NCBI GenBank assembly: GCA_963751215.1
Contig: CAVVTV010000025.1
Location: 130,665-194,664 of the forward strand
DNA length: 64,000 nucleotides
From: an uncultured Thermoleophilia bacterium
Lineage (GTDB): Bacteria > Actinomycetota > Thermoleophilia > UBA2241
Direction: 5' to 3'
Within the stretch, counting starts at the first letter, position 1; every line of letters begins with the position of its first letter. The translations under genes were made by a program, and so were the position numbers. The notes under the pieces are model-generated. The model worked only from the letters and a program-made list of their open reading frames with translations, did not search any database and was not told the DNA's origin. This document shows positions 483 to 60,337 of the stretch, one piece after another.

Positions 483-565
483 GCGCCGCCGCCACGCGGG
501 TGCGTCGCAGACACGATTGAGCTGCCCGTCGTGCGGGCACGGTACAGGCAAGGAGGTGGTTGAAG

Positions 566-1090
566 ATGGCAGTCCTCAAGAGAGGTAGAAACGTCATCAG
601 AGTTGCGGGAGCCGCCGGTGTGGCGGCGCCATATCTGCGCGAGCTGATCTCCGACAGCGAGCTGCGTGACAGCGCACGCACAGCCGTCCGCGCCGTCGGC
701 CGGTTGTACGAGGAGATGTCCGCCGACGAGCGCTTGCGTGATCTGCTGTTCAGCTCAGCACCGCACGCCGACCGGCACCGCTCCTCCCTGAGGTCGCGGT
801 TCCTGGGCAGCGCCAGAACCATGCGCAGCGGCAGGTTCATGCGCAGCGGCAGAATCATGCGTAGCGGCCTGCGGTGGGCGAGAATCGGGAGCTTCGCGCT
901 GGGCACCGGGGTGCTCGTGGGCGCGCTCGCTTACCCACGCAGTCGGCGGCGCATCACCAGAGCCGTCGGTGACGCCCGTGGCACCGTGACCAGCATTGCC
1001 GGCAAGGCCGGCGAGAGAACGGCGGCCACCGCGGGCAGCGCTCGCGAGAAGATCACATCTACCGTGCAGTCACTGCGTCCGGCTGCATAG
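566..1090 (+). CDS. Hypothetical protein with an Arg-rich tandem motif (MRSGRF/MRSGRI/MRSGLR)
   Basis: ATG at 566 is preceded by AGGAGG at 551-556. GC3 is high. The internal triplicated RSGR-MRSG motif and a C-terminal hydrophobic segment are visible. No family was recognised. Confidence 0.4.
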   Translation: MAVLKRGRNVIRVAGAAGVAAPYLRELISDSELRDSARTAVRAVGRLYEEMSADERLRDLLFSSAPHADRHRSSLRSRFLGSARTMRSGRFMRSGRIMRSGLRWARIGSFALGTGVLVGALAYPRSRRRITRAVGDARGTVTSIAGKAGERTAATAGSAREKITSTVQSLRPAA

Positions 1091-1097
1091 CGCGCGG

Positions 1098-1140
1098 CTG
1101 GCGCGGCTGGCTGTGCCGTCTGCACAGCCGGCCGCGCCTT
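1098..1140. terminator. GC-rich hairpin (GGCTGTGC-N5-GCACAGCC, flanked by GGCGCGGC/GCCGCGCC) downstream of the 566-1090 gene
   Basis: The inverted repeat is seen directly in the sequence. There is no U-tract, which is common in high-GC genomes. Confidence 0.35.
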
Positions 1141-1155
1141 AAGGTACTACCGTGA

Positions 1156-1647
1156 GCAAGCGCTCCTGCGACGGGGGGAGGAGCCACGACAACGCAGCAC
1201 TCCATCGTTCTCGGATACGACGGCTCGCCATGTTCCGCTGCGGCGCTGGACCAGGCGGTCGATCTGGCCCATGGGTTGGGCGACGGCGAGGTGATCGTGG
1301 TGTACTGCCGCGAGCCTCCGGCGGGGTTGAGCTGCGACCTCGACCCCACCTGCGAGGCGGCCAAGGCGCTACGCGACTGGGAGTGTGCCGCACGGCAGGA
1401 GGCGGAGCCGATGCTGCGTGAGGCCGCCGGCCGCGTCCAGCAAGCCGGGGTGCGCAGCGAGACGCGGTTCGTGTGTGGCGACCCCGTGCAGGGTCTCGCC
1501 CAGCTCGCCGAGGAACACGACTCGCGCGCCATCGTGGTGGGGTCTCACGCCGAGGGATGGCTGGCCGCCGCACTCCATCGTCGTACGCCACTCGAGCTGC
1601 TGCGCCGTAGCCGCGTGCCGGTGCTGGTGGTGCCGTTCAAAGACTGA
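1156..1647 (+). CDS. Universal stress protein (UspA family). The start codon is ambiguous.
   Basis: The in-frame translation from 1201 reads SIVLGYDGSPCSAAALDQAVDLAHGLGDGEVIVVYC...AIVVGSHAEGWLAAALHRRTPLELLRRSRVPVLVVP, a typical USP fold signature. No ATG/GTG/TTG lies in frame between the upstream stop at 1153-1155 and TTG 1276. A GTG at 1152 is in another frame across a GGGGGG run at 1174-1179, so a homopolymer indel is possible. Confidence 0.7.
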   Translation, partial: ASAPATGGGATTTQHSIVLGYDGSPCSAAALDQAVDLAHGLGDGEVIVVYCREPPAGLSCDLDPTCEAAKALRDWECAARQEAEPMLREAAGRVQQAGVRSETRFVCGDPVQGLAQLAEEHDSRAIVVGSHAEGWLAAALHRRTPLELLRRSRVPVLVVPFKD

Positions 1648-1656
1648 CGTCCACAA

Positions 1657-1823
1657 AGAGCCTATCCCGGTAGGGATGTGTGACCGGGGTGCCCGTGGGC
1701 CGCGTGGGGCGGTTCCGAGACGACTCCCTCGTAGCCGAGCTACGTGGGAGCCGGGGAGGGGCCTGCACGCCCGGATGTGCCCATGGGCACATCCGGGCGT
1801 GCAGGCCTACCGGGATAGGCTCT
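1657..1823. repeat. Nested inverted-repeat element in the convergent USP/glpK intergenic region
   Basis: The outer 18-bp inverted repeat AGAGCCTATCCCGGTAGG (1657-1674) is the reverse complement of 1806-1823. It encloses a perfect 46-nt palindrome at 1761-1806 (GCCTGCACGCCCGGATGTGCC-CATG-GGCACATCCGGGCGTGCAGGC). It likely acts as a bidirectional terminator and could be a REP/MITE-like element. Confidence 0.5.
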
Positions 1824-1869
1824 AAACTCGGGCGGAGTCCGCAGTGCCCGAGGAGCCCGCGCTGCCCGG

Positions 1870-3384
1870 CTACGGTGTGCGCTCCCCCAGCTCGCGCACG
1901 CAGGCTACGGCGTTGTGCCACCCGTCGAGCAGCCGGGCGCGATCTACGCGGGGGTCGGGCGCGAAGGTGCGCTCGGCACGCCACAGTCCCTCTGCCTCGG
2001 AGTCATCGCGCCAGAAGCCCACGGCGAGACCGGCGAGCATGGCCGCGCCGAGCGCCGTAGACTCCGTTTGCGCAGCCCGCCGCACCGGCATCCCGAGCAC
2101 GTCGGCCTGCCATTGCAGGAGCACATCGTCGGCCGCTGCGCCACCGTCAACGCGTAGCTCGCCTGGTGTAATCCCCGCGTCGGCGCTCACCGCGGCCACC
2201 AGATCGGCTACCTGGAAGGCGATGCCCTCGAGCGTGGCTCGGGCGATGTGGGCCGCAGTACTGCCCCGCGTGAGACCCAGGATCGCTCCTCGCGCGCGCG
2301 GTTCCCAGTACGGCGCGCCAAGGCCGGCGAGCGCGGGCACGAAGTACACACCTTCACTCTCCGGCACCCGCACCGCCAGCGCCGCACACTCAGACGCCTC
2401 ATTGATGATACCGAGACCGTCTCGCAGCCACTGGATGGCGGCGCCGCCGATGAACGCGCTGCCCTCCAGCGCGTAGGCGCGGCGCCCGTTGCGTTGCAGC
2501 GCCACGGTGGTCAGCAGACCGCTGCCCGAGGCTACCGGTACGTCTCCCGTATGAGCGAGCACGAAGCACCCCGTGCCGTAGGTGGCCTTGGTCATGCCCC
2601 GGCTGGTGCACGACTGGCCGAACAGGCCTGCCTGCTGGTCACCGGCGATGCCCGCCACGGGCAGCGGCCGGCCGAACAGCGCGGCCTCGGTCTCGCCCAC
2701 CACGCCGCCGCTATCGCACACCCGGGGCAGCATCGCCCGCGGCACGCCGAACAGATCAAGCAGCTCGTCGTCCCAGTCGCCACGCCGCAGGTCGTAGAGC
2801 AGGGTGCGGGAAGCGTTAGTGGCATCCGTTACGTGCAGTCGTCCGCCGCTCAGCTGCCACACGAGCCAGCTGTCGACCGTGCCGAAGGCAAGCTCGCCGC
2901 GCGCCGCGCGGTCGCGCGCCCCGGGCACGCTCGCGAGTATCCAGGCCAGCTTGGTGGCAGAAAAGTACGGATCCAGGACGAGGCCCGTCTTGCGCCGCAC
3001 CAGGGCTTGGGCTCCCGCGGCACGCAACTCGGCGCAACGGTCCGCCGTGCGCCGGTCCTGCCACACGATGGCCGGCGCCACCGGCTGCGAGGTTGCACGG
3101 TCCCACACGATGGTCGTCTCGCGCTGGTTCGCGATGCCTATGGCCGCGATCTGCGAGGTCGACTTGCCGCTACGCCGCAGCGCTTCCAGGGCGGTCTCGC
3201 GCTGTGTCGCCCACAGCTCCAGGGCATCCTGCTCCACCCATCCCGGCCGCGGGTAGCTCTGGCCGATCTCTCGTTGGGCCACGGCCAGAGCGCTTCCGTC
3301 GGCGCCGAAGACCATGGCCCGGGAGCTGGACGTGCCTTGATCGAGGGCAAGGATTGCCCGAGCGTCACGCGACCTTGGTGCCAC
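1870..3384 (-). CDS. glpK: Glycerol kinase
   Basis: The 504-aa translation has an FGGY-family N-terminus ([16 protein letters not shown]). Collinear motifs ([28 protein letters not shown]) run throughout. The length is typical for GlpK. Confidence 0.95.
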
Positions 3385-3488
3385 CTGGCAACCTCCGTGG
3401 GGCTCCGTACACTTAGGCTCAGTCGCCGCGTCCGTGGCTCAGCTGCGACAGGGCCGGCGGCGGACCAGCGAAAAGGCTGGCGGGTAGC

Positions 3489-4196
3489 CTACACCATCGC
3501 CAGGAGCCGCTCCGCCTCGAGCGCGCCACCGGGGTCGTCTTCGTGCTTGAACAGCCAGTACACATCACGGTCCACCGCGAGGAGCTCACGAGAACGCGCC
3601 GCGAACTTCTCAAGGTCGGCCGCGCCGTACGCAGGCTTGCGCAAGCGACGGTACACGTAGTCCGCGGTGGCCACGTCGGGCACCTCGAGGGTCTCGGACT
3701 CCGCCACGCACAGGGCGATGTTGCGTTCACGAAGCAGCGCGTACACGTCGTCTACGAACCACGAGGGGTCGCGGAACTCGAAGGCGCAACGCAGGTCGCC
3801 GGGCAGCAGCGGCAGGAACGCCGCCAGACGCGCGAGGTCCAGCTTGAGATAGGGCGGCAGCTGGAACAGCAGCGGTCCCAGCCGTCGCGCCACTCTGAGC
3901 GGCTCGAGTGCCTTGATGAAGAACTCGGTCGGCTCTTGCGCATCTTTCAAGCGAGCCACGTGGGTGATGCGCTGATGGGCTTTGATCGCGAACACAAACC
4001 CCGGCGGTGTGGCCGCCACCCACGACTCGAGGGTGGCGGCCGAAGGCATACGCCGGAACGTGTAGTTGATCTCGACGCAGTTCAGCCGGCCGGCATAGTG
4101 TTCCAAGAACCTGCCGGCCGGCAGTCCTGCGGGATAGAAGCCGGGCTTCCATGACGCGTAAGCGAACCCCGACGTACCCGCGAAGAGCGTGGCCAC
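3489..4196 (-). CDS. DUF72 (YecE-like) family protein
   Basis: [16 protein letters not shown]...[23 protein letters not shown] is the DUF72 signature. The start is 1 nt after the upstream ABC ATPase stop, which indicates coupling. Confidence 0.8.
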
Positions 4197-4197
4197 G

Positions 4198-5002
<805 letters not shown>

Positions 5003-5010
<8 letters not shown>

Positions 5011-5944
5011 GGCCCTTCACCACCCTTCGTGCAGCGCGCTTCTCCGCCGCCTCTGTCTCCTCGGCGCCGAAGCCTTTGCCGAAGTACGCCTCCAGGTAGT
5101 GCTGGCCGATCGTCATCAGCGTGGTGAAGAACAGGTACCACATGGATGCCACGATCAGCAGCGGGATCTGCTGAAACGTCTGCGAATACACGATCTGCAC
5201 GTTGGTCATGAGCTCGTGGCCGGCAATGACGATGAGCAGCGAGGTGGTCTTGAGCATCGAGATCGTCTCGTTGCCCATGGCGGGGATGATCACGCGCATG
5301 GCCTGTGGCAGAACGATGCGGCGCATGCTCAGGGTGGGCGACATGCCGAGTGACTCGGCCGCCTCGGTCTGACCCTTGTCGACCGAGATGATGCCGGCGC
5401 GCACGAATTCGGCCATGTAGGCCGCCTCGTTGAGGCCCAGCGCCAGGATGCCGGCGACCGCGCCGGCGATCACGCTGCCGGCGTCGAACGAGCCGAACAC
5501 GATGTGGGTGAACGGAAAGCCGACGAAGATGGTCTTGTACTCCGCGCCGATGAATCCCCAGAAGAGGATCTGGACCAGCACCGGTGTACCGCGGAAGAAC
5601 CAGATGTAGAAGCCCGACACGCTGGTGAGGATGTTGTTCGCCGACAACCGCATGACGGCGAGGATCGTGCCCCCCGCGATGCCGATGGCCATCGAGATGA
5701 ACGTCACGTAGAGCGTCACCACGCAGCCGCGCAGCACCAATCCGGTGAACAGGTACTGCCTGATCACCGAGAGCTCGGTGTTGGGGTTCTTCAGGAACGA
5801 GAAGATCAGCGCAACGCCGAGGTAGATGATGACGGCCGCGCTGATCCAGCGGCCGTAGTGACGCAGGGGTATCGCTTTGATCGTCTCGGGGCGGGCGGCG
5901 CCGCCGCCGCCCGCCCCCATGGATGCTTGACCTGCAGCTGCCAT
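5003..5944 (-). CDS. Polar amino-acid ABC transporter permease (His/Glu/Gln/Arg/opine family)
   Basis: Multi-TM translation carrying the EAA-like loop motif [33 protein letters not shown]. It sits between the SBP and ATPase genes. Confidence 0.9.
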
Positions 5945-5962
5945 GTCAGATACCGCGAGAGA

Positions 5963-7009
5963 TCACGGCGAGGCGCTTGCGCTGACCGGCACCGTACCTT
6001 GGTTGACTTGCGCCGACGTCACGGGCACCAGGCCGTAGGACGCGACGATCTTCTGGTAGGCGCCCTCGTTAATGAGGTCTTGCAGCCCCTTCTGCCACAC
6101 CGTGAGAAGCGCGGTGTTGGTCTTGAGGATGCCGGCGCCGACCAGCGTCGGGGCATAGCCGTTGGGCGCCGCCGGATCGACGGCGAGCTGGAACGAGTTG
6201 CCGTTGTTGGTGGTGCGCGCGATGTAGCCGGCGGTGGAGTGGTCGGTGAGATCGCCGACCGCCCGGCCGCTCTTGATGGCCAGCAGCGCCGACGGCTGAT
6301 CGGGGAGGGTGAGGATATTCATGGTCGACTGACCGGCGGCCTTGAACTTGGTGTTCTGGGTCTGCAGCAGAAGCTGCTGCGTGGTGCCGGTCTCCACGGC
6401 GACCGTCTTGCCCGCCAAGCTGTTGAGACCCGTGATGTTCTGCGGGTTGCCCTTGGGCACGATGATGGACGTGGTGTCGTAGGCGTAGTCGACGAAGCTG
6501 AGCACCTTCTCGCGCACGGCGTTGTCGTACATGTCCGACATGATGACGTCGTTCTTGCCGGCCTTGAGCGAGAGGATGATGCCGCTGAAGGGCTGCTCGT
6601 TGAACGACACGGGCACGCCTATCTTGGCGCCGATGGCCTGCGAGAGGTCATAGTCAAAGCCAGTGGGCTGCTTGCTGGTGGCGCTCACGTACATCTCCCA
6701 CGGCGGGTACGGGATGTCGCTCGCCACCCTGATCGAAGTCATGCCGGCGGGCAGCTGCGACTTGAGGGCGGCGTCGGGCGTGAGCGCGGCCAGGTCGGCC
6801 GGCGTCCAGGTGGCTGTCGCCGTGGTGGAACTGGCACTGGGGGTGGGGCTTGTTGTTGGGCCGGTGCTGCTGCTGCCGCATCCGGCGGCGAAGACCACGA
6901 CGGCGGCGACCCCCAAGACAGCCGCAAGGGTCAAAACGCTAAGGCCTTTCGGCCGGCGTATCCTGCGCCCTAAACCAATCGCCGGCGCGAACGGATGCGA
7001 TCTCAACAT
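5963..7009 (-). CDS. ABC transporter substrate-binding lipoprotein (family 3, polar amino acids)
   Basis: The ATG (reverse complement of 7007-7009) is preceded by GGAGGTG. The signal peptide carries the lipobox AAGCGSSS, followed by a Thr/Ser-rich linker and an SBP_bac_3-like domain (GFDYDLSQAIGAKIGVPVSF...). The ORF-track extension to 7231 is unlikely to be coding. Confidence 0.85.
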   Translation of the reverse strand: MLRSHPFAPAIGLGRRIRRPKGLSVLTLAAVLGVAAVVVFAAGCGSSSTGPTTSPTPSASSTTATATWTPADLAALTPDAALKSQLPAGMTSIRVASDIPYPPWEMYVSATSKQPTGFDYDLSQAIGAKIGVPVSFNEQPFSGIILSLKAGKNDVIMSDMYDNAVREKVLSFVDYAYDTTSIIVPKGNPQNITGLNSLAGKTVAVETGTTQQLLLQTQNTKFKAAGQSTMNILTLPDQPSALLAIKSGRAVGDLTDHSTAGYIARTTNNGNSFQLAVDPAAPNGYAPTLVGAGILKTNTALLTVWQKGLQDLINEGAYQKIVASYGLVPVTSAQVNQGTVPVSASASP

Positions 7010-7257: not shown

Positions 7258-7557
7258 TCAGGCGGCCTCACACAGCCGGCGGTCGACGGCTTCGGTCTCC
7301 TTGACCCACGTGAGGCGCGGCGCGCTCTCTACACCGCCACGCTGCATGGCCTGCTCCATCGACGGCCCGGCTAGAAACGCCTCCGCCGCCTGGCGCGAGG
7401 GAAACTGCAGCAGCACCGTGAGGTCGGTGGGCAGGTCGCTATCGCGAAACACGAAATGGCCGGTGCATCCGTAGGTCTGACGCACCGGCTCCTGCTCATC
7501 GAACACGGGTTTCCAGGCGTCGAAGTCACGCACCTTGTGCTGGATCACCAGGATCAT
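7258..7557 (-). CDS. Small dimeric alpha/beta-barrel-like protein (DUF1330-like, tentative)
   Basis: 99 aa. The segment LTVLLQFPSRQAAEAFLAGPSMEQAMQ resembles the DUF1330/ABM-type fold signature. GC3 is high. The family assignment is from memory only. Confidence 0.45.
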   Translation of the reverse strand: MILVIQHKVRDFDAWKPVFDEQEPVRQTYGCTGHFVFRDSDLPTDLTVLLQFPSRQAAEAFLAGPSMEQAMQRGGVESAPRLTWVKETEAVDRRLCEAA

Positions 7558-51254: not shown

Positions 51255-51368
51255 GGTGCCATGATGGCATCATGAATGGTGCCATGTCAATGCCACATGA
51301 GCACCAGGGAGCGTGCGCCCAGAGAGCGTGCGCTCCTATGCGGCCCTACCGGCCGAGAGCGTGCGCTC

Positions 51369-52248
51369 CTACGCGGCCCTACCGGCCGATTCGCTCTGGC
51401 TTCTGCTCTGCGGGACGAACTGGCTGGCGATGAACGTCGCCCCCTGCGGGTCGGCGATCACGGTCATCCTGACCCAAGGGGCGTCGAACGGCGGGGCGAG
51501 CACCTTGCCACCCAGCGCGGCTGCTCGCGTGGCGATGGCATCCGCGTCATCGGTTGCGAACGTCACGCTCCAGTGGGCCGGGACATCCTGCTGGTCGGCG
51601 CGGATGGGGTTGATGTTCGCGACGACGTCCTCGAAGCCCGGAGCGGTGCCATACTCTGCTATGCGCTTTCGCAGCCCGGGCTCGCGCTCCTCGAGGTGAT
51701 CGCCGTAGCCGGGCAGCGTCCATAGCTCGCCGCCATCGATCGTCAGAGTCTGCCAGCCGAATACGGACCCATAGAACTTCTTCGCGGCGCCCGCATCGCG
51801 CGTGTTCAGGCTGTTGAAGTTCAACGACCCTGCCTCGTTGACGACCCGCGCGCCCTTGTGCTGCTTGGCCTGCCAGGCGAAGAAGACGGCACCTTCGGGG
51901 TCCGAGAAGACCGCCATGCGGCCGGCGTCTGTCATGTCGAACGGCTCCGTCAGCGTCCGGCCGCCGGCCTCCAGGACCCTGGAGGCGGTCTCGTCAGCGC
52001 TCTCCACCCACACAAATGTGTTCCACACGCCGATCGCTGGGGCTCCCTCGGGCAGTGACCCGACGGCGGCGACGTCGCGGCCGCGAATCCGCGCGACGAA
52101 GTACCTGCTCTCAGAGCCCGGCGGCATGACGTCCTCAAACTCCCAGCCAAACAGATCGTGGTAGAAGGCAACGGCAGCCTCCGGGTCGGGCTGGTTTGTG
52201 TCGACCCAGCATGGGACGCCGGGGATGTATCCGTCTCGTTCGGGCATT
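51369..52248 (-). CDS. VOC family protein (two glyoxalase/bleomycin-resistance-like modules)
   Basis: An ATG near 52248 is preceded by AAGGAG. Duplicated beta-alpha-beta-beta-beta modules (FYHDLFGWEFE..., FYGSVFGWQTLTI...). The exact start coordinate is uncertain by 1 nt in my count. Confidence 0.75.
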
Positions 52249-52428
52249 GTTGCTCCTTCGTGGACGACGTCAAGCCATACCGTCACCGCGCGGAGCGGCG
52301 GCGGCATTAGCCTTCTTTTCCCGCCGTGAGGGCCGGCGGGACAGCCGCAGCGTTGAGCAATGTCGCCCGACACTTGGGTCGCTCGTTCCCGTGACCTCAG
52401 GCGAGAAGGCTCGGGAAGAAGCCCAGCC

Positions 52429-52890
52429 CTACGAGACCAGTCGTGAATCGTAGGTAAACGGAGCCACGGATGCGACCGTGATGCGGGGCAGGTCGGGGTG
52501 CAGAGGGTTCAGGAGGTAGTTGGCTTCTCGGGGAATCACCGAAGACGGCACCTGGAGGACGGGGGTAGACCGATCGGCCAGCCACTCGTCGCCGAGTTTC
52601 TGAAGCTCTGGCGGCGCGGGATATAGCCGCCAATCCTCGGGAAGTGAGCCGACGCCAATCGCCCGAACGGCCACGTCGTCCGGTATGTCAATCTCGACCT
52701 GGGCCATGCCCGCCGGAGCTATGTCCCTATCTACATGTACGAGGATCTCGAGCGCAGCCAAGGCCAGCGAAGCCGATGTGTAGACGATCGGCTGTCCTGC
52801 GCTGTGCCATCGCCCCGGGGTAAGAAGCCCGCCCCGCCCTGTGAGCGTCTCGGCAGCGTGGCGCCCAGCGCAGATGCGCCAGACGCGCAC
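52429..52890 (-). CDS. RES domain toxin (MbcT/ParT-like NAD+-targeting toxin family)
   Basis: 153 aa with GRWHSAGQPIVYTSASLALAALEILVH and conserved R..E..S spacing. It lies immediately downstream of the Xre-like antitoxin gene. Confidence 0.8.
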   Translation of the reverse strand: MRVWRICAGRHAAETLTGRGGLLTPGRWHSAGQPIVYTSASLALAALEILVHVDRDIAPAGMAQVEIDIPDDVAVRAIGVGSLPEDWRLYPAPPELQKLGDEWLADRSTPVLQVPSSVIPREANYLLNPLHPDLPRITVASVAPFTYDSRLVS

Positions 52891-53342
52891 TAGCCGTAGA
52901 TGCCGTAGTCGATGCGTTCGAGTACGTGCTCGATGCGACGCTCACCGATCTCGGTATCGAGTTGACCAATGGGGGTGTCGCCCCCCAGAGCCTGGTTCGG
53001 CCGATGCAGCCATAAGCGGGCTTTCTCGAGTGAACCCAACGTATCGGTCGCCTGGAGGGTCACACGAGCAACGCGGTAGAGCCGATCTGACTCAGTGGGG
53101 GAAAGGACACGCTTGATCTTTCTCCGCGCCATCGTGCGAGGAGAGGCGCCGACCAGCCAGACAAGCGTCGGGGTGTCCAGCTGAAGAGCACCCAGAACAG
53201 CCTCGAAGGCGGCATACGGAAACCCCCGGCGGAGAGCCTCCCGCAGGTCCTCCGCGTTCTTGATGCGAGGGGTGAAGGCCTTAGGCCCGCCCAGCAACGA
53301 CACCACTCTCCTGGTGTCTTCTTCCTGATAGACAGTTGCCAT
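52890..53342 (-). CDS. Xre-like antitoxin (DUF2384/MbcA-ParS family) of the RES-Xre pair
   Basis: 150 aa. The C-terminal ...WLHRPNQALGGDTPIGQLDTEIGERRIEHVLERIDYGIYG is typical of DUF2384. The gene order antitoxin then toxin is canonical. Confidence 0.75.
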   Translation of the reverse strand: MATVYQEEDTRRVVSLLGGPKAFTPRIKNAEDLREALRRGFPYAAFEAVLGALQLDTPTLVWLVGASPRTMARRKIKRVLSPTESDRLYRVARVTLQATDTLGSLEKARLWLHRPNQALGGDTPIGQLDTEIGERRIEHVLERIDYGIYG

Positions 53343-53563
53343 TTGTCGAGAATCATACCGCCAAATGGCAGCATATCAAACAGGTCTCGACGCTGGGAAT
53401 GGCACTCACTCTGATACCCGAAGACCTCGAGCCAGAACGACGAGGGCGAAGCCCATTGCCGCCGCCCGCCTGCGGGCTAGGCGTGTTCGCCATCGAGATC
53501 ACAAGACAGACATGGCCGACGGGCGAGGGCTACAGCCCTCGGCACGCCAGCGCGTTGCCGCTT

Positions 53564-53581
53564 TTATCAGCATGCTGATAA
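53564..53581. promoter_or_regulatory. Perfect 18-bp palindrome TTATCAGCATGCTGATAA 10 nt upstream of the MarR start: putative MarR operator
   Basis: Seen directly in the sequence, in a lower-GC intergenic region. Confidence 0.5.
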
Positions 53582-53590
53582 ACTAGCTTC

Positions 53591-54034
53591 ATGGCAACTT
53601 CTCACTACCACGTCGGCAATCAACTGCACCGTGCCGAACATGCGATGGGCATGAGCTTCAGCGAAGCGCTGCGGCCACTCGGCATCACGCCATCACAGGC
53701 CGGCGTGCTGCTGCACATCGATCGCTACCCGGACGTGAACATGGCGAGGCTGGCCGATGTTGCTTCTGTCGCACCGCAAACGATGCACCGCATCGTCGTC
53801 GGGCTGGAGCGCCGCGAACTGGTGCACCGCAACCAAAGGACCGGGGACAGGAAGTCCATCTATCTCTCCCTCACCCCCGCGGGCGCAGATGTGCTCAGCC
53901 AGGCAGAAGCCATCCTCAGGGCCGAGCAGGAGGTTCTGAGGCAGGCATTCAACCCGCAAGAGCTGGATGCGTTCTTTGACTTCCTGCAACGATTTGAGGC
54001 CGCGTTTCAAAGACCAGAGAGGCGGCATCCCTGA
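53591..54034 (+). CDS. MarR family transcriptional regulator
   Basis: LGITPSQAGVLLHIDRYPDVNMARLADVASVAPQTMHRIVVGLERRELVHRNQRTGDRKSIYLSLTPAG is a winged-HTH MarR signature. Confidence 0.85.
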   Translation: MATSHYHVGNQLHRAEHAMGMSFSEALRPLGITPSQAGVLLHIDRYPDVNMARLADVASVAPQTMHRIVVGLERRELVHRNQRTGDRKSIYLSLTPAGADVLSQAEAILRAEQEVLRQAFNPQELDAFFDFLQRFEAAFQRPERRHP

Positions 54035-54035
54035 T

Positions 54036-55076
54036 ATGCAACGCAGGGGAGTCTGCTACGACGTGGGCCGCTATCTCTACGGCGATTGGCGCAAGGATTA
54101 CAACCCCCAGACGGTTCACCGTGAGCTGGAGATCATCCGAGACGACTTGCACGGCAACGCGGTCAGGATCTGCAGCAGGGATCTCGACCGTTTGGCGGTC
54201 GCCTCTGAAGACGCCCTGCGGCTAGGGCTTGAGGTCTGGTTCTCTCCAGAGCTCTGGAACAAGAACCCTGAAACAACCCTTGCCTACACGGCCAAAGCAG
54301 CCGAGATTGCTGAGAACCTCCGCCGCCACTACCCTGACAAGCTGGTGATGAGCGTCGGCAGCGAGCTGACGCTGTTCATGAAGGGCATTGTCGAGGGTGG
54401 CTCGCTTTGGTCGCGGATGCGCCATGCCTTGCGCGATGGTGACGTGAAGGCCGGCAAGCACAACAAACCACTCAACGAATACTTGTCCCAGGTGGTCGAG
54501 TCCGTGCGCCGGGTCTACCAAGGCCCCATTACCTACGCATCGCTATCCTTCGAGGAGGTCAACTGGGAGCCGTTTGACTTCATCGGCATCGATCATTACC
54601 GAGCAACGCGAATCAATTATCGCTATGCAGACATGCTGAAGCCGCTCATCGCCCAACGTAAGCCGGTGGCGATCATGGAGTTCGGCTGCTGCACCTACCA
54701 AGGTGCCGAGCACGCCGGCGGCCAGGCATTCAACATCGTAGACATCAAGACGCTAGTCATGCACGGCATCCCCTTGCTGGGCAGATTCGTGCAGCCGCGG
54801 CTGAAGGGGCAGTACGTACGCAATGAAACGCTGCAGGCCCGCGAAATCGTCGAATCGCTCAAGGCGTTCGATAGCGTCGGCGTGGATGGTGCCTTTGTCT
54901 TTACGTTCGTGTTCCCGCAAAGCCCATACCATGAGAACCCCCTGCACGACCTCGACATGGCGAGCTACAGCATCGTGAAGTCCTATGAAGACGGAAGACA
55001 TGGCGTGACCTATCCGGACATGACATGGGAGCCGAAAGAGTCATTTGCGGCGGTGGCCGAGTACTACAGCAAGTGA
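54036..55076 (+). CDS. TIM-barrel glycoside-hydrolase-like protein (GH5-superfamily-like, tentative)
   Basis: The ATG at 54036 is 1 nt after the MarR stop. The translation reads GVCYDVGRYLYGDWRKDYNPQTVHRELEIIRDDLHGNAVRI...VAIMEFGCCTYQG, cellulase-like in appearance. The family is not certain. Confidence 0.45.
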   Translation: MQRRGVCYDVGRYLYGDWRKDYNPQTVHRELEIIRDDLHGNAVRICSRDLDRLAVASEDALRLGLEVWFSPELWNKNPETTLAYTAKAAEIAENLRRHYPDKLVMSVGSELTLFMKGIVEGGSLWSRMRHALRDGDVKAGKHNKPLNEYLSQVVESVRRVYQGPITYASLSFEEVNWEPFDFIGIDHYRATRINYRYADMLKPLIAQRKPVAIMEFGCCTYQGAEHAGGQAFNIVDIKTLVMHGIPLLGRFVQPRLKGQYVRNETLQAREIVESLKAFDSVGVDGAFVFTFVFPQSPYHENPLHDLDMASYSIVKSYEDGRHGVTYPDMTWEPKESFAAVAEYYSK

Positions 55077-55180
55077 GCGTGACTACGATCTTCACCGGAA
55101 CGTTGCCCATGGAGTCTGCACTGATCACGACGTAGGGCCGCTTCTTCTGCAATTGGCACCGACGGTCTTGCCGGGCCTGA

Positions 55181-55354
55181 TTCACCACACCTCGCCACGC
55201 TTCGGCTGAGGGCGGTCGGCCATTAGTAGTCGACCAGCTACCGCGCATCCGGTTGCACGACCTGCGACATACGCATGCCACCCTGGCGCGTCGGGCCGGC
55301 TTCCATCTCAAGGTCGTCTCGGAGCGCCTCCGCCCCGCGACGTCCCCCTGCTAG
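55181..55354 (+). pseudogene. Tyrosine-recombinase (phage integrase) C-terminal remnant
   Basis: The translation ...LPRIRLHDLRHTHATLARRAGFHLKVVSERLRPATSPC* contains the integrase box II HDLRHT motif but stops before the catalytic Tyr. It has no N-terminal domain, and stops lie upstream. Confidence 0.55.
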
Positions 55355-55404
55355 CCCCGACACCCGACGCTGGTGTAGCTTCTCGGCTCAAGGAGGCCTC
55401 GCCC

Positions 55405-55950
55405 ATGGCGCGCACATGGTTGTCGATCCAAGTGGAGCTCGTGCAGGGCCACGGCGAGGCCCTCTGGCCGCGGCCGGGCCGCATCTTCGCCGCGGCGCGC
55501 TCACACACTTTCGCCCAGCTCGCCGAAGCCATCGACGACGCCTTCGCGCGCTGGGACCGCTCCCACCTCCACGAGTTCAGCCTCGGCGACGGCACGCGCC
55601 TAACGACGCCCTACGACGACTGGGACGATGGCGATGAGGCGCTCGACGATAGCAAGATAAGACTGAGCCGCCTGCAGCCTGGCGGGCAGTTCGTCTACGT
55701 CTTCGACTTCGGCGACGACTGGGCCCACCTCTCCACCGTGGCGGACATGCGCATCGATCCACTCAGGATGCTCGGCATCATCCCCGCGCAACCCCTGCCC
55801 TACTGGGGCTGGGGCGACATCCCCGACCAGTACCAGCGCCACTTTGACGGCGACGACGGCGAGACGGAGCGGCCGCCAGACCCCGGGCTCTGCGACCTGC
55901 CGCCGCTACGACCGTGGTGGGGGTCGCAGAACCGCCGACGGGGACGATGA
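55405..55950 (+). CDS. Plasmid pRiA4b ORF-3-like family protein
   Basis: WLSIQVELVQGHGEALWPRPGRIF...YVFDFGDDWAH resembles PF07929-family proteins, which are often found on mobile elements. Confidence 0.6.
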   Translation: MARTWLSIQVELVQGHGEALWPRPGRIFAAARSHTFAQLAEAIDDAFARWDRSHLHEFSLGDGTRLTTPYDDWDDGDEALDDSKIRLSRLQPGGQFVYVFDFGDDWAHLSTVADMRIDPLRMLGIIPAQPLPYWGWGDIPDQYQRHFDGDDGETERPPDPGLCDLPPLRPWWGSQNRRRGR

Positions 55951-56154
55951 GATCGCCCTGATTCGGCGGCCGCCGAGGCGTTCACCCGGGACGGAGGAAC
56001 CGAGTCGCGCAGTTGTCTCACTGGCTGCATTCCTCGGCGAGCGCCGTCTGGTCGGTAATCTCCTCATCTCCAGCGCACGCGACTGCGGGCTGCCGCTGCG
56101 GCGCGCGGATGACCGCGACCGCGACGAAGATGGCGCCGGCCAGAAATTACCCGT

Positions 56155-56442
56155 TTGCAGGCGTCACGAACTGGAGAGTTCTCGAACAACCGCCAGTACA
56201 GTCTCTCCCATACCAGACTAGCGGAGAAGGTCGGGCTAACGGCACCAAAGGCGACAGCCCTGATACGTTGCCTGGGAATTGAGGACAACCCTGACTGCTA
56301 CAAGCGAATCATGATCGGAAAGTCGGCGTTCAAGCGCTACTCGCCAAAAGCGATCGACGACATGAAGGCTGCGCTCCAAGAGATGTCCATCGACGAGGTC
56401 TGGAGGAAGCACAAGCCTCGCCCCCACACGCCGAGCCCCTAG
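56155..56442 (+). CDS. Small hypothetical protein, possibly HTH-containing, in a lower-GC region
   Basis: SLSHTRLAEKVGLTAPKATALIRCLGI is helix-turn-helix-like. GC is about 55% against about 70% elsewhere. The start is uncertain. Confidence 0.3.
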   Translation: MQASRTGEFSNNRQYSLSHTRLAEKVGLTAPKATALIRCLGIEDNPDCYKRIMIGKSAFKRYSPKAIDDMKAALQEMSIDEVWRKHKPRPHTPSP

Positions 56443-56607
56443 GGGGTGCGGAGCCTGTGCCGAGTGCCGGCGGGCATCTCTGAGAACCGCCGCATGCCGC
56501 CACCTGACACCACGTGCGTTTGCCGAGCGTTTGCCGAGAACCCTTTCGGGGCCAAAGCGAGACGCGCGGAGAGTGCGGAAACACCTGCAAATGAGCGTAA
56601 ACGAGGC

Positions 56608-56683
56608 TGGTGGACCGCAGGGGATTCGAACCCCTGACCTCCGCCGTGCAAAGGCGGCGCTCTCCCAACTGAGCTAGCGGCCC
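56608..56683 (-). tRNA. tRNA-Ala (anticodon TGC), with encoded CCA
   Basis: The reverse complement GGGCCGCTAGCTCAGTTGGGAGAGCGCCGCCTTTGCACGGCGGAGGTCAGGGGTTCGAATCCCCTGCGGTCCACCA folds as a cloverleaf. It has the G3:U70 identity pair, anticodon loop CTTTGCACG, and a T-loop GGTTCGAATCC. Confidence 0.9.
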
Positions 56684-56940
56684 ACAAGGGCGCCATTATA
56701 GCGCGAAGCGGAGCGCCGAGATCGGCCATGGGTCGCCGCCGATCGCCGACGACTGCCATCGCCAGGCGGGGCCGAACTGGCGCACCGCGCCACGCAAGGG
56801 TAATGGTTGACAGGCGCGGGTGGGTGAGCGGCGGCGGGACCGCCGGCAAACGCTTTCCCCCTCGCACCCGCGGGGAAGAGACGCGGGTACGCCGCCGTTG
56901 CGCGAGCGCCAGCATCTGCCCCCGAGACCAAGGGACTCTC

Positions 56941-57495
56941 ATGAGCAACGATCCTTACGACAGACTGCCACAGGTACGGTCGTTCCGACTCACCAGCGAC
57001 GACGTGCGCGACGGCGATGAGATGCCGCGGCCACATGTGAGCGAGAGCTCGGGCGGCGACAACCTCTCGCCGCAGCTCTCCTGGTACGGCTTCCCGCCCG
57101 AGACGCGCAGCTTTGTAGTCACCATGTACGACGCCGACGCGCCCACACCCAGCGGCTTCTGGCATTGGGCGATGGCCGATATCCCGGCCGGCACCACCTC
57201 GCTGCCGCGTGGCGCCGGCAGCCCCGGCAAGAGCGGTCCCGACGGCCTGCCGGCCGGCGCCTTTCACGTGCGCAACGACGCCGGCCTTGCCGGCTACCTG
57301 GGTGCCGCACCGCCGGAGGGGCACGGCAGGCATCGCTACTTCATCGCCGTGCATGCCGTCGACGTGGAATCGCTGGGCCTGGGCGCCGACGCCACTCCGG
57401 CCTACCTCAGCTTCATGCTGTTTGGTCACACGCTGGGCCGCGCGCTGATGGTGCCCTGGTTCGAGGCGAGGTCCGGAGAGCAGCAGGTGGCCTGA
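56941..57495 (+). CDS. YbhB/YbcL (PEBP, Raf-kinase-inhibitor-like) family protein
   Basis: ATG at 56941. SPQLSWYGFPPETRSFVVTMYDADAPTPSGFWHWAMADIP...GHGRHRYFIAVHAVD is the PEBP signature. Confidence 0.8.
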   Translation: MSNDPYDRLPQVRSFRLTSDDVRDGDEMPRPHVSESSGGDNLSPQLSWYGFPPETRSFVVTMYDADAPTPSGFWHWAMADIPAGTTSLPRGAGSPGKSGPDGLPAGAFHVRNDAGLAGYLGAAPPEGHGRHRYFIAVHAVDVESLGLGADATPAYLSFMLFGHTLGRALMVPWFEARSGEQQVA

Positions 57496-58724
57496 GCGCG
57501 GCCACCGTCGGCCGCCTCGTCGCAGGCGCCTCCGGCCGCACAGCCGCCGAGAAAGACCTCGAGCGGTACACCGCCCTCGCCGACCAGCGTCACATCCCGG
57601 GGGGAGTACCGCGCTGCGAACCTGGTGAGGCCGGCAGCGTCGCGCTTGCGCGGCCGGCCGCTCTTCACCTCAATGGCGGTGAGTGACCCGGCAGCCTCGA
57701 CGACGTAGTCCACCTCGAGGTCTCCCTCGCGCCAGTAGTGCAGCCGCCGAGTCGGGTCTTCAGCCGCCAGGGCCACGAGGTGGGCGCCCACCGCCGTCTC
57801 CACGAGCCGGCCCCAGTGGTCACGGTCGGAGCGCGCCTGTTCAAGGGGGAGGCCCTTCACAGCACTGTGCAGTGCCGTATTGAGCACCAGGAGCTTGGGC
57901 GACGAGCCACGTTTGCGCACGGCCCGTCCCGAGTACTTCTGCAGCCCCACGATCAGCCAAGCGTCGGCCAGCCGCCTGAGGTACTCGGCAAGAGTGGTGG
58001 TGTTACCGGCATCCTGCAACTGGCCGACCAGCTTGCTATAGCTCACGATCTGCCCGGAGTAGTCACAGCCGAGATAGAAGAGCTGGCGCAGCAGCGCGGG
58101 CTTGTCTATGCGGCCCAGAGAAAGCACGTCGCGCGACACGGTCGTCTCAATGATGGAGTCGAGCACGTAGCTGCGCCAGCGGCCGAAGTCGTGGACGAGT
58201 GGAGCCGCACCGGGGTAGCCGCCGTAGAAGACGTAGGTGTCGCAGTCCCAGCCGAAGGCGTCGCGGCATTCTGACAAGCTCCAGTGGGTCGCTGGCAAGG
58301 TCTCGAAGCGGCCCGCTAGTGACTCCTCCATCCGTTTCCTCACGAGCAGCGGCGACGAGCCCAGGAGGACCAGGCGCAGATCGCGACCCTCCCGTGTGTC
58401 GCGATCCCAGTTCGCCTTCACGCGCTCCGCCCAGCCCGGGATCTTGTGCACCTCGTCGAGCACGAGCACGGCCAGCTCGCTGGGAGAGGTGGAGGCACGC
58501 GCGATGCTCCATTGCTCGTCGATCCAGATCGCGGAGGGTAGCAACGGCTCGTCGCCTGAGGCGTAGTGAACCGGCGTGCCCTGTGCCCCCAAGTGGGCTC
58601 GCGCATGCAACACAGCGGTGGTCTTGCCCACCTGCCGCGGGCCGAGAATGGCCTGCACGAAGCGGCGAGGCTCGCCGAGGCGTTCGAGTAACCTCGCCAC
58701 AAGCGGACGTTCAAAAGTGGCCAT
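57426..58724 (-). CDS. AAA-domain ATPase with a C-terminal DUF4143 domain
   Basis: ATG at 58724. Walker A is GPRQVGKTT, Walker B is VLVLDEVH, and a DUF4143-like C-terminus follows (…LHYWREGDLEVDYVVE). The ORF-track N-terminal extension overlies the promoter palindromes and is rejected. Confidence 0.8.
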   Translation of the reverse strand: MATFERPLVARLLERLGEPRRFVQAILGPRQVGKTTAVLHARAHLGAQGTPVHYASGDEPLLPSAIWIDEQWSIARASTSPSELAVLVLDEVHKIPGWAERVKANWDRDTREGRDLRLVLLGSSPLLVRKRMEESLAGRFETLPATHWSLSECRDAFGWDCDTYVFYGGYPGAAPLVHDFGRWRSYVLDSIIETTVSRDVLSLGRIDKPALLRQLFYLGCDYSGQIVSYSKLVGQLQDAGNTTTLAEYLRRLADAWLIVGLQKYSGRAVRKRGSSPKLLVLNTALHSAVKGLPLEQARSDRDHWGRLVETAVGAHLVALAAEDPTRRLHYWREGDLEVDYVVEAAGSLTAIEVKSGRPRKRDAAGLTRFAARYSPRDVTLVGEGGVPLEVFLGGCAAGGACDEAADGGRAQATCCSPDLASNQGTISARPSV

Positions 58725-58740
58725 ATGCAGGGATCCCATC

Positions 58741-58790
58741 ATGTACTCAGTGTACTGAGTAATGTTACTCAAGACACTGAGTAATGTCAA
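58741..58790. promoter_or_regulatory. Two inverted repeats (TACTCAGT-gt-ACTGAGTA and TTACTCA-agacac-TGAGTAA) in a lower-GC stretch just upstream of the AAA ATPase gene
   Basis: Seen directly in the sequence. A plausible operator pair. Confidence 0.35.
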
Positions 58791-58858
58791 ACGACGGCAG
58801 AGCACGTAAGGCCCGCAGCGCGCAGAACCTGCCCCTGCCGGCGCACGTCTGCGCCGCG

Positions 58859-60337
58859 CTAGTGATGAAAGCCGCCGCCCGTCTCGGCCAGCGGCGCGCG
58901 CAGCCTCTCGAGGTGCTTGACCTTCTTCGCGAGGTCTTCGAGCAGCATGTCGGCCACATCGCGGGTCATGTCGCTGCGCACCACTACGCGCAGCGCCGCG
59001 AGGTCCTCGCGGTTCTTGGGAAACGTGTAGGCCGGCACCTGCCAGCCGCGCTCGCGCAGCGACGCCGAGACGTCGAAGACGGTGAAGTTCTTCACCTCAT
59101 CCTTGAGCTTGAAGGCGAAGACCGGCAGCTCGTCGCCCCTGGTGAGCAGCTCAAAGGGCCCCATTTTGGCGATCTCCCCCGACAGGTACGTGGCCACCTT
59201 GCGGGCATAGCCCTGCACGCGCCGGTAGCCTTCAAAGCCGAGCCGCAGGAAGGTGTAATACTGGGCCACCACCTGCGAGCCGGGGCGCGAGAAGTTGAGC
59301 GCAAAGGTGGGCATGGTGTCGCCGAGGTAGTTGACCCAGAAGATGAGGTCGTCCGGCAGCGCGGCGGCGCCCCGCCAGACGGCCCAGCCCACGCCCGGGT
59401 ACACCAGCCCGTACTTGTGACCCGACGTGTTGATGGACTGCACGCGCGGCACGCGAAAGTCCCATTCCAGCTCGGGATCCAGGAAGGGAGCGATCATGCC
59501 GCCGCTGGCGCCGTCAACGTGTATCGGGATGTCGAGCCCCGTGCGCGCCTGCAGGTCGTCGAGCAGCTCGGCGGTCTTCTTCACGTCTTCGTAGCTGCCG
59601 TCGAAGGTGGAGCCCAGCACCACCACCACGCCGATGGTGTTCTCGTCGCACAGCTTCACCGCCTCTTCGGGCGACAGATGGTAGCGCTCGCCCTCCATGG
59701 GCACCAGACGCATCTCAACATCCCAGTAGTTGGCGAACTTGTCCCAGCACACCTGCACGTTGATGCCGGTGACGAGGTTGGGTCTGTCGGCGGGCTTGCC
59801 CGCGGCACGGCGCCTCTGCTGCCAGCGACGCTTGAGGGCCAGACCGCCGAGCATCGCCGCCTCGCTGGAGCCGGTGGTGGAGCAGCCTGTCGCCTCGCTC
59901 GCCCGCGGCGCGTGCCAGAGGTGGCTCAGCATGTTCACGCAGCGCATCTCCATGATCGCCGTCTGCGGATACTCGTCCTTGTCGATCATGTTCTTGTCGA
60001 AGGTCTCGGCCATGAGCTTGTCGGCGAATGAGTCCATGGAGGTGGTTACAAAGGTCGCCAGGTTAAGGCGGGCGTTGCCGTCGAGCATGAGCTCGTCGTG
60101 AACGATCTGGTACGCCACGTCGGCCCGCATCTCGGCGGCGGGCAGCTCGCGGCGAGGTACGCTATCCGCCTCGGCCGAGAAGACGGAGTCCAGGGCGGCG
60201 TTGCGCCGGCGTTCACGCGGACCTTTGGGGTGTTGCAGCGCCACTGGACCTCCTCGCGTTCGGCGGGACACGCCTGTGCCTACCCGCCGGCGCATCCTCC
60301 GATACGTATCGTCCCGCCGCGCCGGCGGCGTAGACAA
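58859..60337 (-). CDS. Glutamate decarboxylase (group II PLP decarboxylase)
   Basis: ADVAYQIVHDELMLDGNARLNLATFVTT is the GAD N-terminal signature, and SINTSGHKYGLVYPGVGW is the PLP-Lys motif. The start could be 60337 or an internal Met 13 codons downstream. Confidence 0.9.
   Translation of the reverse strand: MSTPPARRDDTYRRMRRRVGTGVSRRTRGGPVALQHPKGPRERRRNAALDSVFSAEADSVPRRELPAAEMRADVAYQIVHDELMLDGNARLNLATFVTTSMDSFADKLMAETFDKNMIDKDEYPQTAIMEMRCVNMLSHLWHAPRASEATGCSTTGSSEAAMLGGLALKRRWQQRRRAAGKPADRPNLVTGINVQVCWDKFANYWDVEMRLVPMEGERYHLSPEEAVKLCDENTIGVVVVLGSTFDGSYEDVKKTAELLDDLQARTGLDIPIHVDGASGGMIAPFLDPELEWDFRVPRVQSINTSGHKYGLVYPGVGWAVWRGAAALPDDLIFWVNYLGDTMPTFALNFSRPGSQVVAQYYTFLRLGFEGYRRVQGYARKVATYLSGEIAKMGPFELLTRGDELPVFAFKLKDEVKNFTVFDVSASLRERGWQVPAYTFPKNREDLAALRVVVRSDMTRDVADMLLEDLAKKVKHLERLRAPLAETGGGFHH

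Follow-up and report, generated by a model that had tools for sequence, protein, structure and literature searches.

The window analysed here, a 64,000-nucleotide stretch of DNA from an uncultured Thermoleophilia bacterium, contains a tRNA-Ala(UGC) gene whose 3' end, at 56608, faces a 4.3 kb islet extending over approximately 52.29-56.58 kb. Reading leftwards from the tRNA, this islet comprises an ORF with a PDC-S19 domain, a gene similar to ORF3 of pRiA4b, the C-terminal stump of a tyrosine integrase, an operon formed by marR and an AcvX-like hydrolase gene, and a complete xre-res operon (Table 1). A preliminary description of the locus had reported the same tRNA, which is called by both ARAGORN and Rfam, and had viewed the adjacent genes as the remnant of a single genomic island.

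Table 1. Features of the islet and its junctions, in window coordinates
Feature	Position	Strand	Evidence
Left junction, from limit of homology to the VOC gene (52293 in L090) to res stop	52294-52428		No att-like repeat
RES-domain toxin, ParT-like, full length	52429-52890	-	Pfam RES 5.3e-30; NCBIfam Res_ParT_toxin 7.1e-48
Xre/ParS-type antitoxin	52890-53342	-	Pfam Xre_MbcA_ParS_C 2e-15; NCBIfam Xre_ParS 7e-30
Perfect 20-bp palindrome TTTATCAGCATGCTGATAAA, likely MarR operator	53563-53582		Palindrome search and conservation
MarR-family repressor, first gene of two-gene cassette	53591-54034	+	Pfam MarR_2 3.5e-10, MarR 1.7e-9
AcvX-like TIM-barrel-type putative glycoside hydrolase, GC 0.585	54036-55076	+	PDB 7Y4H; Pfam GH113
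Tyrosine-recombinase C-terminal stump, ~50 codons, box II HDLRH at 55256-55270	55196-55354	+	Translation, PHROG, tblastn
pRiA4b ORF-3-like gene (PF07929), intact, GC3 0.874 (host-like)	55405-55950	+	Pfam 5.8e-14
95-codon ORF, TTG start, ~75-aa domain; GC 0.576, GC3 0.75	56155-56442	+	PADLOC PDC-S19 2.3e-21
Spacer between PDC-S19-domain ORF and tRNA	56443-56607		Alignment with L001 and L002
tRNA-Ala(UGC), CCA encoded	56608-56683	-	ARAGORN; Rfam RF00005 67.7 bits

The composition of the islet is atypical of its surroundings. Values of GC3 lie between 0.715 and 0.774 in res, xre, marR, the hydrolase gene, the integrase stump and the PDC-S19-domain ORF, as against 0.83-0.91 in the genes flanking the islet and a mean of 0.837 (sd 0.045) for the long ORFs of the window; the pRiA4-like gene, at 0.874, is the exception. 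The GC content is 0.57-0.60 across 53.1-55.2 kb, and the drops described earlier around 53340-53600, 56150-56450 and 58725-58800 are real, with local minima of 0.573 (53300-53599), 0.587 (56150-56449) and 0.623 (58550-58999) relative to approximately 0.68 overall.

The leftmost operon has the features of a type II toxin-antitoxin system, as had been proposed. The RES protein aligns with ParT (PDB 6D0H; 2.2e-28), retaining the GRW, LE and VPS motif positions with their conserved Arg, Glu and Ser, and the Xre protein carries PF09722 and PF20432, including the C-terminal toxin-binding domain. The antitoxin gene comes first in the operon, the TAG stop codon of xre overlapping the GTG start of res (TAGTG), and the xre start is spanned by a promoter-like TTGATA-16-TATGAT sequence (53379-53352) and an inverted repeat (53337-53348/53359-53370). 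These features suggest a ParST-type system in which the two genes would be translationally coupled and the inverted repeat probably autoregulatory. The full-length RES toxin, with ParT as its best match, the toxin-binding domain of its partner and the overlapping, antitoxin-first arrangement are shared with ParST of Sphingobium and MbcTA of Mycobacterium tuberculosis. ParT ADP-ribosylates Prs and MbcT degrades NAD+ (structures PDB 6D0H and 6GW6); the predicted pair described here may act in either manner. Such a module may have stabilised the islet.

The neighbouring marR-AcvX unit is a sharply bounded cassette of 1.5 kb, the left end of which is the palindrome itself. Its limits of homology with other loci fall at 53562, 53564 or 53567 on the left and 55078, 55081 or 55067 on the right, and the unit, operator included, is found again with equally sharp limits in four contigs from metagenomes, representing three distinct flanking contexts and ranging from 49 to 66% GC. 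Genes for AcvX-like proteins are likewise preceded by marR in L175/L176 and L183, the operator core TTATCAGCATGCTGATAA being retained upstream of marR in both L175 (GC 0.49) and L183 (GC 0.56), while L181/L182 carry a copy of the cassette from which marR has been deleted; the flanks are unrelated in L175, L183 and L181/L182.

Both the MarR protein and the operator of the preliminary description are borne out, as a winged-helix regulator is preceded by a perfect palindrome at its own promoter. The right arm of this palindrome overlaps a TANNNT -10-like hexamer situated 7 nt ahead of the marR ATG, a spacing that would imply a leaderless transcript, and the hydrolase gene starts 1 nt past the marR stop codon. 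Autoregulated operons of the MarR family have palindromic operators that overlap the promoter. The cassette resembles them in that marR follows a 20-bp palindrome kept across cassettes of 70-83% identity and precedes an apparently co-transcribed enzyme gene; it may accordingly be read as an operon repressed via the conserved palindrome, released by a ligand and probably transcribed without a leader. It differs in its partner enzyme. The gene previously called a hydrolase does encode a putative enzyme, but its match to Pfam GH113 is borderline (3.8e-6, just below the cut-off) and the assignment is better given as AcvX-like, the protein being a full-length homologue of AcvX (PDB 7Y4H; 4e-76, residues 1-344), for which a search of the literature on AcvX and 7Y4H found nothing relevant and recovered no function.

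To the right of the cassette lies the integrase stump, which reads through to LPRIRLHDLRHTHATLARRAGFHLKVVSERLRPATSPC and a TAG stop codon ending at 55354, with no tyrosine beyond this point in any frame. It thus corresponds to the fragment, devoid of the catalytic tyrosine and approximately 1.3 kb from the tRNA, that had been noted by eye. Its identity is indicated by a match to the PHROG_1 integrase profile (4.7e-8) and by tblastn hits, at 51-68% identity, to integrases annotated in phages and plasmids, Pfam alone giving a weak match (E = 0.018). The N-terminal ~300 codons are missing along with the catalytic residue, and what is left, a box II stump, is not a functional integrase. An intact integrase elsewhere, which might have shown the fragment to be unrelated to the islet, was not detected by a motif search of the 64-kb window, in which HxLRH occurs in the stump only.

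These observations bear on the reading that the block consists of native chromosomal genes, ancestral to the lineage, whose low GC3 results from low expression or amino-acid bias and whose 'integrase' is a chance motif. The host-like GC3 of the pRiA4-like gene would fit such a history, as would the failure to observe an empty site, but the integrase was identified by three independent searches, copies of the marR-AcvX cassette with unrelated flanks, in organisms of 49-66% GC, share 70-83% of its DNA sequence, and one of its proteins is 73% identical to one from a Peptococcaceae bacterium. The block is also absent from the orthologous tRNA in L001 and L002, the two nearest genomes, over the sequence available there. 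This explanation is largely refuted and is regarded as very improbable.

Between the stump and the tRNA, the ORF at 56155-56442, previously described as an HTH gene, has no match in Pfam, NCBIfam or PHROG. It instead covers positions 276-352 of the 357 in the profile of the PADLOC candidate PDC-S19, the C-terminal ~77 residues of a protein that is ~355 aa in its full-length form. No further PDC-S19 sequence was found upstream of 56155. Homologues are either 88-160 aa long or ~300-365 aa with the domain at the C terminus, and the gene call in the source annotation is 43 aa; the ORF may be a short gene in its own right or what is left of the 3' end of a gene for ~355 aa.

The intact PF07929 gene, already recognised as pRiA4b-ORF3-like, is a promiscuous single-gene module. 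It has 1831 homologues, of which the best 120 are 68-77% identical; it occurs alone in hundreds of contexts, and its DNA homology to other loci and to actinobacterial plasmids is limited to the ORF (55396-55935). A search of the islet against plasmid DNA found this gene only, on actinobacterial plasmids, and a search against phage DNA found no match. An integrase motif accompanied the gene in only 2 of 87 loci, and the idea of a constant pairing between the two was rejected on this ground.

When 11 pRiA4 loci were searched for flanking repeats, two metagenomic islets were found to be bounded by perfect repeats of a tRNA 3' end. One, L118, is 3.1 kb in length with 49-bp repeats and harbours a pRiA4-like gene and a toxin-antitoxin pair; the other, L161, is 6.2 kb in length with 44-bp repeats and harbours a pRiA4-like gene. 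Neither encodes a recognisable recombinase, and in both the pRiA4-like gene lies 0.3-1.3 kb from the tRNA in convergent orientation, an arrangement also seen in the window and at four other loci. A third locus, L101, harbours an integrase alongside its pRiA4-like gene, and an imperfect direct repeat of 40 nt (75% identity) lies close to its two ends. By analogy, L118 and L161 lend support to the reading of the block beside tRNA-Ala as a decayed integrative islet. In a wider sample, a tRNA was found downstream of the pRiA4-like gene in 6 of 82 loci, compared with 3.7 expected from a tRNA-rich background sample (P = 0.17), a weak and non-significant signal.

Islets such as L118 and L161 are of the CIME type. 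CIMEs, described for relatives of the Streptococcus thermophilus ICEs, are cis-mobilisable islets that lack an integrase and have an att site at either end. The islet in the window is similarly small, located at a tRNA 3' end and devoid of a working integrase; its pRiA4-like gene and the tRNA are convergently oriented and, as in L118, it has a toxin-antitoxin pair. It differs in that both att sites are kept in L118 and L161 and absent in the window; having lost these defining repeats, it would not be mobilisable in trans. The combination of perfect tRNA repeats, no recombinase and a convergent gene near the tRNA in L118 and L161 also raises the speculation that the pRiA4b-ORF3-like protein ('IS1096 passenger TnpR') is a working part of integrase-less tRNA 3'-end islets, for example as an accessory factor in excision or integration or as an unrecognised recombination function, but such an active role is considered highly unlikely.

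The att sites, which had not been seen by eye, were not detected by computational means either. Allowing as many as three mismatches, none of three tRNA probes of 20-21 nt found a repeat in the window, blastn-short of the tRNA and its flanks against the window returned nothing above chance, and the suggested repeat of the tRNA-Ala 3' half near 52.3-52.5 kb had no match beyond chance. Smith-Waterman comparisons at every module junction were similarly negative relative to shuffled controls, the top alignment (56563-56578 against 52287-52301) scoring 9.5 compared with a maximum of 14 among the shuffles.

The two nearest genomes, L001 and L002, were identified by a search of genome contigs with the neighbouring PEBP protein. 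Both align to the window only from the 3' end of the tRNA rightwards, L001 at approximately 87% nucleotide identity. Left of the tRNA, where the L001 contig ends after 1.6 kb and the L002 locus after 0.4 kb, neither matches the window, and L001 has a DDE_3/IS630-like transposase. The final ~25-30 bp of the spacer are probably native tRNA flank, since a CCTGCAAAT motif (about 56583-56591) is common to the spacer and the tRNA 3' flanks of L001 and L002 when these are aligned. In L002, a segment of 6.3 kb in which no integrase was found is flanked by a 63-bp direct repeat (98% identity) from the 5' half of tRNA-Ala; on the basis of this tRNA-derived repeat, the orthologous tRNA-Ala is a target for recombination in the lineage. 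Relatives also vary at the PEBP-GAD junction and on the tRNA 5' side, with 1.3 kb extra in L001 and 9.5 kb in L002, and the window itself carries a 1.35-kb single-gene PDC-S01 insertion in this variable region.

At the other end of the islet, the genes next to VOC differ in each of the relatives compared (L088-L091), with no conserved synteny, so that the left boundary is drawn by composition only. The comparison with related genomes recovered no empty site, either in L001 and L002, given their short left sequence, or in the relatives sharing the VOC gene, and no exact matches to the RES and pRiA4 proteins of the window were returned. Insertion relative to an ancestor is consequently putative.

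The region might alternatively be variable without any tRNA-targeted integration, the cassettes and the stump having arrived through unrelated events, such as illegitimate recombination, IS activity or homologous exchange of flanks, and lying near the tRNA because a break in synteny there tolerates insertions. The independent mobility of the cassettes, the missing att repeat, the weak tRNA association of pRiA4-like genes, the variability of the tRNA 5' side and PEBP-GAD junction among relatives, and the presence in L001 of an IS630-like transposase at the site in place of an integrase would all be expected on this basis. Two features of the islet also tell against the interpretation preferred below: an integrase usually sits next to its att site, and here 1.25 kb and two ORFs intervene between the stump and the tRNA, and the pRiA4-like gene has a host-like GC3. 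As evidence against unrelated events, the only integrase motif in 64 kb is found less than 1.3 kb from the tRNA 3' end, the same pRiA4-like gene occurs in the same orientation in the genuine att-flanked tRNA islets L118 and L161, and the orthologous tRNA in L002 has a repeat derived from it. A series of unrelated events is thus judged a rather unlikely, if plausible, origin.

The preferred interpretation is that the region is a degenerate, immobile islet next to the 3' end of tRNA-Ala(UGC), which probably arose through piecemeal acquisition and loss of DNA at a hot spot of recombination and not from one intact element. An element encoding a tyrosine recombinase, possibly inserted by tRNA-targeted integration, would once have occupied the site, and ~50 codons of its integrase C terminus are left. 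The integrase N terminus may have been lost at or after the arrival, on the left, of the lower-GC block, which holds two self-contained cassettes, marR-AcvX and xre-res. Right of the stump lie the pRiA4b-ORF3-like gene, a type of cargo common in integrative elements and actinobacterial plasmids, and the PDC-S19-domain ORF. The block as a whole is a mosaic whose cassettes have separate histories; the remnant island originally proposed is supported by the tRNA 3' side, dead integrase stump, odd composition and synteny break, but the idea of one decayed integrative element holds only in part, because there is no att repeat, no empty site was found and the parts act as independent cassettes.

Horizontally acquired patchworks beside bacterial tRNA genes are well known, and tRNA integration sites were reportedly surveyed by Williams in 2002. 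The locus shares with tRNA-linked islands and degenerate integrative elements carrying tyrosine integrases the tRNA 3' side, an integrase remnant, unusual composition, toxin-antitoxin and accessory cargo, and a break in synteny at the tRNA. It departs from them in being a mosaic of separately mobile cassettes, without flanking direct repeats, in which ~50 codons of the integrase survive and do not adjoin the tRNA.

The analysis corrects three gene calls, the integrase being a pseudogene stump, the 'HTH' ORF a PDC-S19-type C-terminal domain and the hydrolase AcvX-like, and, with little weight beyond annotation, marks the tRNA-Ala(UGC) locus as a hot spot of gene gain and loss in a Thermoleophilia-like lineage. 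Two by-products may be reusable: the recurrence of pRiA4-like genes in att-flanked, integrase-less islets at the end nearest the tRNA, and a sharply delimited marR-AcvX cassette that, with its conserved operator, has crossed hosts of 49% to 68% GC.

ARAGORN identifies a single tRNA gene in the 64 kb window, the high-GC DNA of which (GC approximately 0.68) encodes a tRNA-Ala(UGC) on the minus strand, such that the tRNA 3' end points to lower coordinates, toward a block of genes at approximately 52.29-56.58 kb. The third-position GC contents (GC3) of these genes were compared with those of 43 long open reading frames (ORFs) of the window (mean 0.837, sd 0.045), the neighbouring genes lying at 0.83-0.91; the pRiA4-like gene is host-like in composition, and the local dips in GC noticed in the preliminary description are present. 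Two tandem 33 nt copies, 97% identical (51322-51387), extend over the VOC gene's 3' end and into the spacer that separates it from the adjacent gene.

Features of the block and its flanks (window coordinates) and of repeats and islets in other metagenomic loci (locus coordinates)
Feature	Position	Strand	GC3	Remarks
VOC/glyoxalase gene	51369-52247	-		two-domain; left flank of block
res	52890-52429		0.727	divergent from marR
xre	53342-52890		0.715	divergent from marR
marR	53591-54034		0.730	
Hydrolase gene	54036-55076		0.769	begins 1 nt past marR stop
Integrase-like stump	end at 55354	+ frame	0.774	
pRiA4b-ORF3-like gene	55405-55950		0.874	
95-codon ORF	56155-56442		0.750	matches PADLOC PDC-S19
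tRNA-Ala(UGC)	56608-56683	-		ARAGORN; Rfam 67.7 bits
PEBP/YbhB gene	56941-57495			right of tRNA
L002 direct repeat	445-507 and 6768-6830			flanks 6.3 kb (M28 peptidase, unknowns)
L118 flanking repeat	41-89 and 3215-3263			perfect 49 bp, tRNA-Asp 3' part
L118 islet				3.1 kb; HEPN-MNT toxin-antitoxin pair, DUF2293 gene, pRiA4-like gene
L161 flanking repeat	381-424 and 6664-6707			perfect 44 bp, tRNA-Ala(GGC) 3' part
L161 islet				6.2 kb; SnoaL, DUF6933, Uma2, pRiA4-like gene

The nearest public relatives of the window are two uncultured Thermoleophilia MAGs, L001 (~87% nucleotide identity) and L002 (75-83%), which align to it from 56608 rightwards only, through the tRNA, PEBP, glutamate decarboxylase and cardiolipin synthase genes. 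All three share a short CCTGCAAAT motif immediately 3' of the tRNA, and everything farther left is unrelated; in L001 this comprises a DDE_3/IS630-type transposase followed by the contig end, and in L002 the 0.4 kb compared. In L002, a 63 bp direct repeat (98% identical) takes in the tRNA-Ala(UGC) 5' half up to the anticodon loop together with the 22 bp that precede the gene, with no integrase in the segment between the copies. Such repeats usually cover the 3' part of the tRNA, whereas that of L002 covers the 5' part. The break in synteny in both relatives and the repeat in L002 thus mark the orthologous tRNA as a hot spot for recombination in the lineage.

The interval between the tRNA 5' side and the PEBP gene (56706-56848 in the window) is ~1.3 kb longer in L001 (1699-3160), including a cupin gene, and reaches ~9.5 kb in L002; both sides of tRNA-Ala are therefore variable. 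Farther right, an insertion (57496-58850) separates the convergent PEBP and glutamate decarboxylase genes precisely at their stop codons, a junction at which L001 has a mere 36 bp spacer. It carries a single minus-strand AAA_14/DUF4143 ATPase gene (57426-58727/58805; PADLOC candidate PDC-S01, 1.5e-152) extending ~70 nt into PEBP antisense, which suggests loss of its native 3' end. Just upstream of this gene, tandem 22 nt units TACTCAGTGTACTGAGTAATGT and TACTCAAGACACTGAGTAATGT (58744-58787), each internally palindromic, may represent an operator. That the tRNA 5' side and the PEBP-glutamate decarboxylase junction likewise vary among relatives favours the main rival interpretation, in which the pieces of the block were gathered without any tRNA-directed integration; we consider this less likely than our main reading. 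The integrase stump, the low GC3 and the break in synteny at the tRNA support in part the proposal in the preliminary description that the block is a remnant island.

The 57-aa stump translates in the + frame as LPRIRLHDLRHTHATLARRAGFHLKVVSERLRPATSPC, followed by a stop codon. Its Pfam match is weak on its own (E = 0.018), PHROG_1 'integrase' matches at 4.7e-8, annotated phage and plasmid integrases match at 51-68% identity by tblastn, and its HxLRH motif is the only one in the whole window. No Tyr follows the stump in any frame, in agreement with its earlier identification as a tyrosine-integrase remnant devoid of the catalytic residue. A search of the window found no surviving att repeat at the block, including the direct repeat of the tRNA-Ala 3' half that had been suggested as a check near the left border.

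Left of the stump, the expected MarR regulator and a candidate operator were both recovered: Pfam supports the identity of the protein, and a perfect 20 bp palindrome, TTTATCAGCATGCTGATAAA (53563-53582), precedes the marR ATG by 8 nt. The adjoining hydrolase is a full-length homologue of the PDB 7Y4H protein 'AcvX' (4e-76) and borderline to GH113 in Pfam (26.9 bits, cut-off 27); its SVGSEL and AIMEFG motifs appear to resemble both catalytic-glutamate motifs of clan GH-A enzymes. Homology to other loci extends over 53562-55078 in L175 (GC 0.49), 53564-55081 in L183 (GC 0.56) and 53567-55067 in L181 and L182 (GC 0.65), the last two having an internal deletion of marR, and the flanks are unrelated in all four; judged by these limits, marR and the hydrolase gene together form a discrete cassette. 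Both L175 and L183 preserve the palindrome core unchanged, and each copy has a TANNNT hexamer after it, 7 nt before the ATG, an arrangement consistent with a predicted MarR operator overlapping the -10 element of a leaderless transcript. This 1.5 kb two-gene unit (53562-55081; L175, L181-L183), which includes no recombinase, has ends that are sharp and reproducible, and its operator core is identical, across hosts with 49-68% GC. Other AcvX-like genes occur without marR, and the protein family crosses phyla, with 73% identity to a Peptococcaceae protein; some sources label members 'abortive infection protein', and PADLOC does not recognise the protein.

The stop codon of xre (TAG) and the start codon of res (GTG) overlap, and the presence of a RES-Xre pair is borne out by Pfam (RES, 5e-30; Xre_MbcA_ParS_C, 2e-15), by NCBIfam (Res_ParT_toxin, 7e-48; Xre_ParS_antitoxin, 7e-30; both exceeding cut-offs) and by end-to-end alignment of the toxin with ParT (PDB 6D0H; 2e-28), in which the GRW, LE and VPS positions are retained. 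A promoter-like site, TTGATA-16-TATGAT (10/12 matches), and a 12 nt inverted repeat straddle the xre start, and the xre transcript is likewise predicted to be leaderless. The pair is complete and plausibly active; that it stabilises the islet is conjecture.

The pRiA4-like gene has 1831 homologues, the best 120 of which share 68-77% identity, in contexts as varied as RHS toxins, defence genes and actinobacterial plasmids. As its DNA homology stays within the ORF, no other islet gene of the window reappears next to it across 87 loci, and an integrase motif occurs in only two of these, it is, by comparison of loci, a single-gene module. Of 82 non-redundant loci, 6 have a convergent tRNA no more than 2.1 kb downstream, a frequency that exceeds the typical genomic density of tRNA genes but not that of a control sample rich in them (expected 3.7, P = 0.17). 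Two loci, L118 and L161, in which the gene is close and convergent to the tRNA as in the window, may by analogy show the appearance of an intact version of the islet. Neither contains an integrase and, being bounded on both sides by perfect tRNA 3'-end repeats, both (41-3263 and 381-6707, respectively) resemble cis-mobilisable elements of the CIME type. A further locus, L101, combines an integrase with a pRiA4-like gene and has an imperfect 40 nt repeat near both ends. In L099, the last 43 nt of the pRiA4-like gene (6484-6526) are repeated 974 bp downstream (7458-7500; 91% identity), which may be a second, truncated copy.

The ORF nearest the tRNA, previously labelled an HTH gene, loses that label: it has no match in Pfam, NCBIfam or PHROG, and corresponds instead to the final ~77 residues of the PADLOC candidate PDC-S19 (2e-21). 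Exhaustive phmmer searches place this domain C-terminally in many proteins of 88-160 aa, and also in proteins of ~300-365 aa; the source annotation calls just 43 aa, and a search upstream revealed no further PDC-S19 sequence. The ORF may be either intact, as a small gene, or a stump.

Given the independence of the marR-AcvX cassette and the pRiA4 module, the block is not, on sequence grounds, the one element that the preliminary description implied. Our best reading, held with moderate confidence, is that a fossil islet occupies a tRNA hot spot here. A tyrosine-recombinase element would have decayed at the tRNA-Ala site, its integrase being cut on the left when the lower-GC marR-AcvX and xre-res cassettes arrived or were rearranged, and its att sites would since have been lost. 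The block belongs to a well-known kind.
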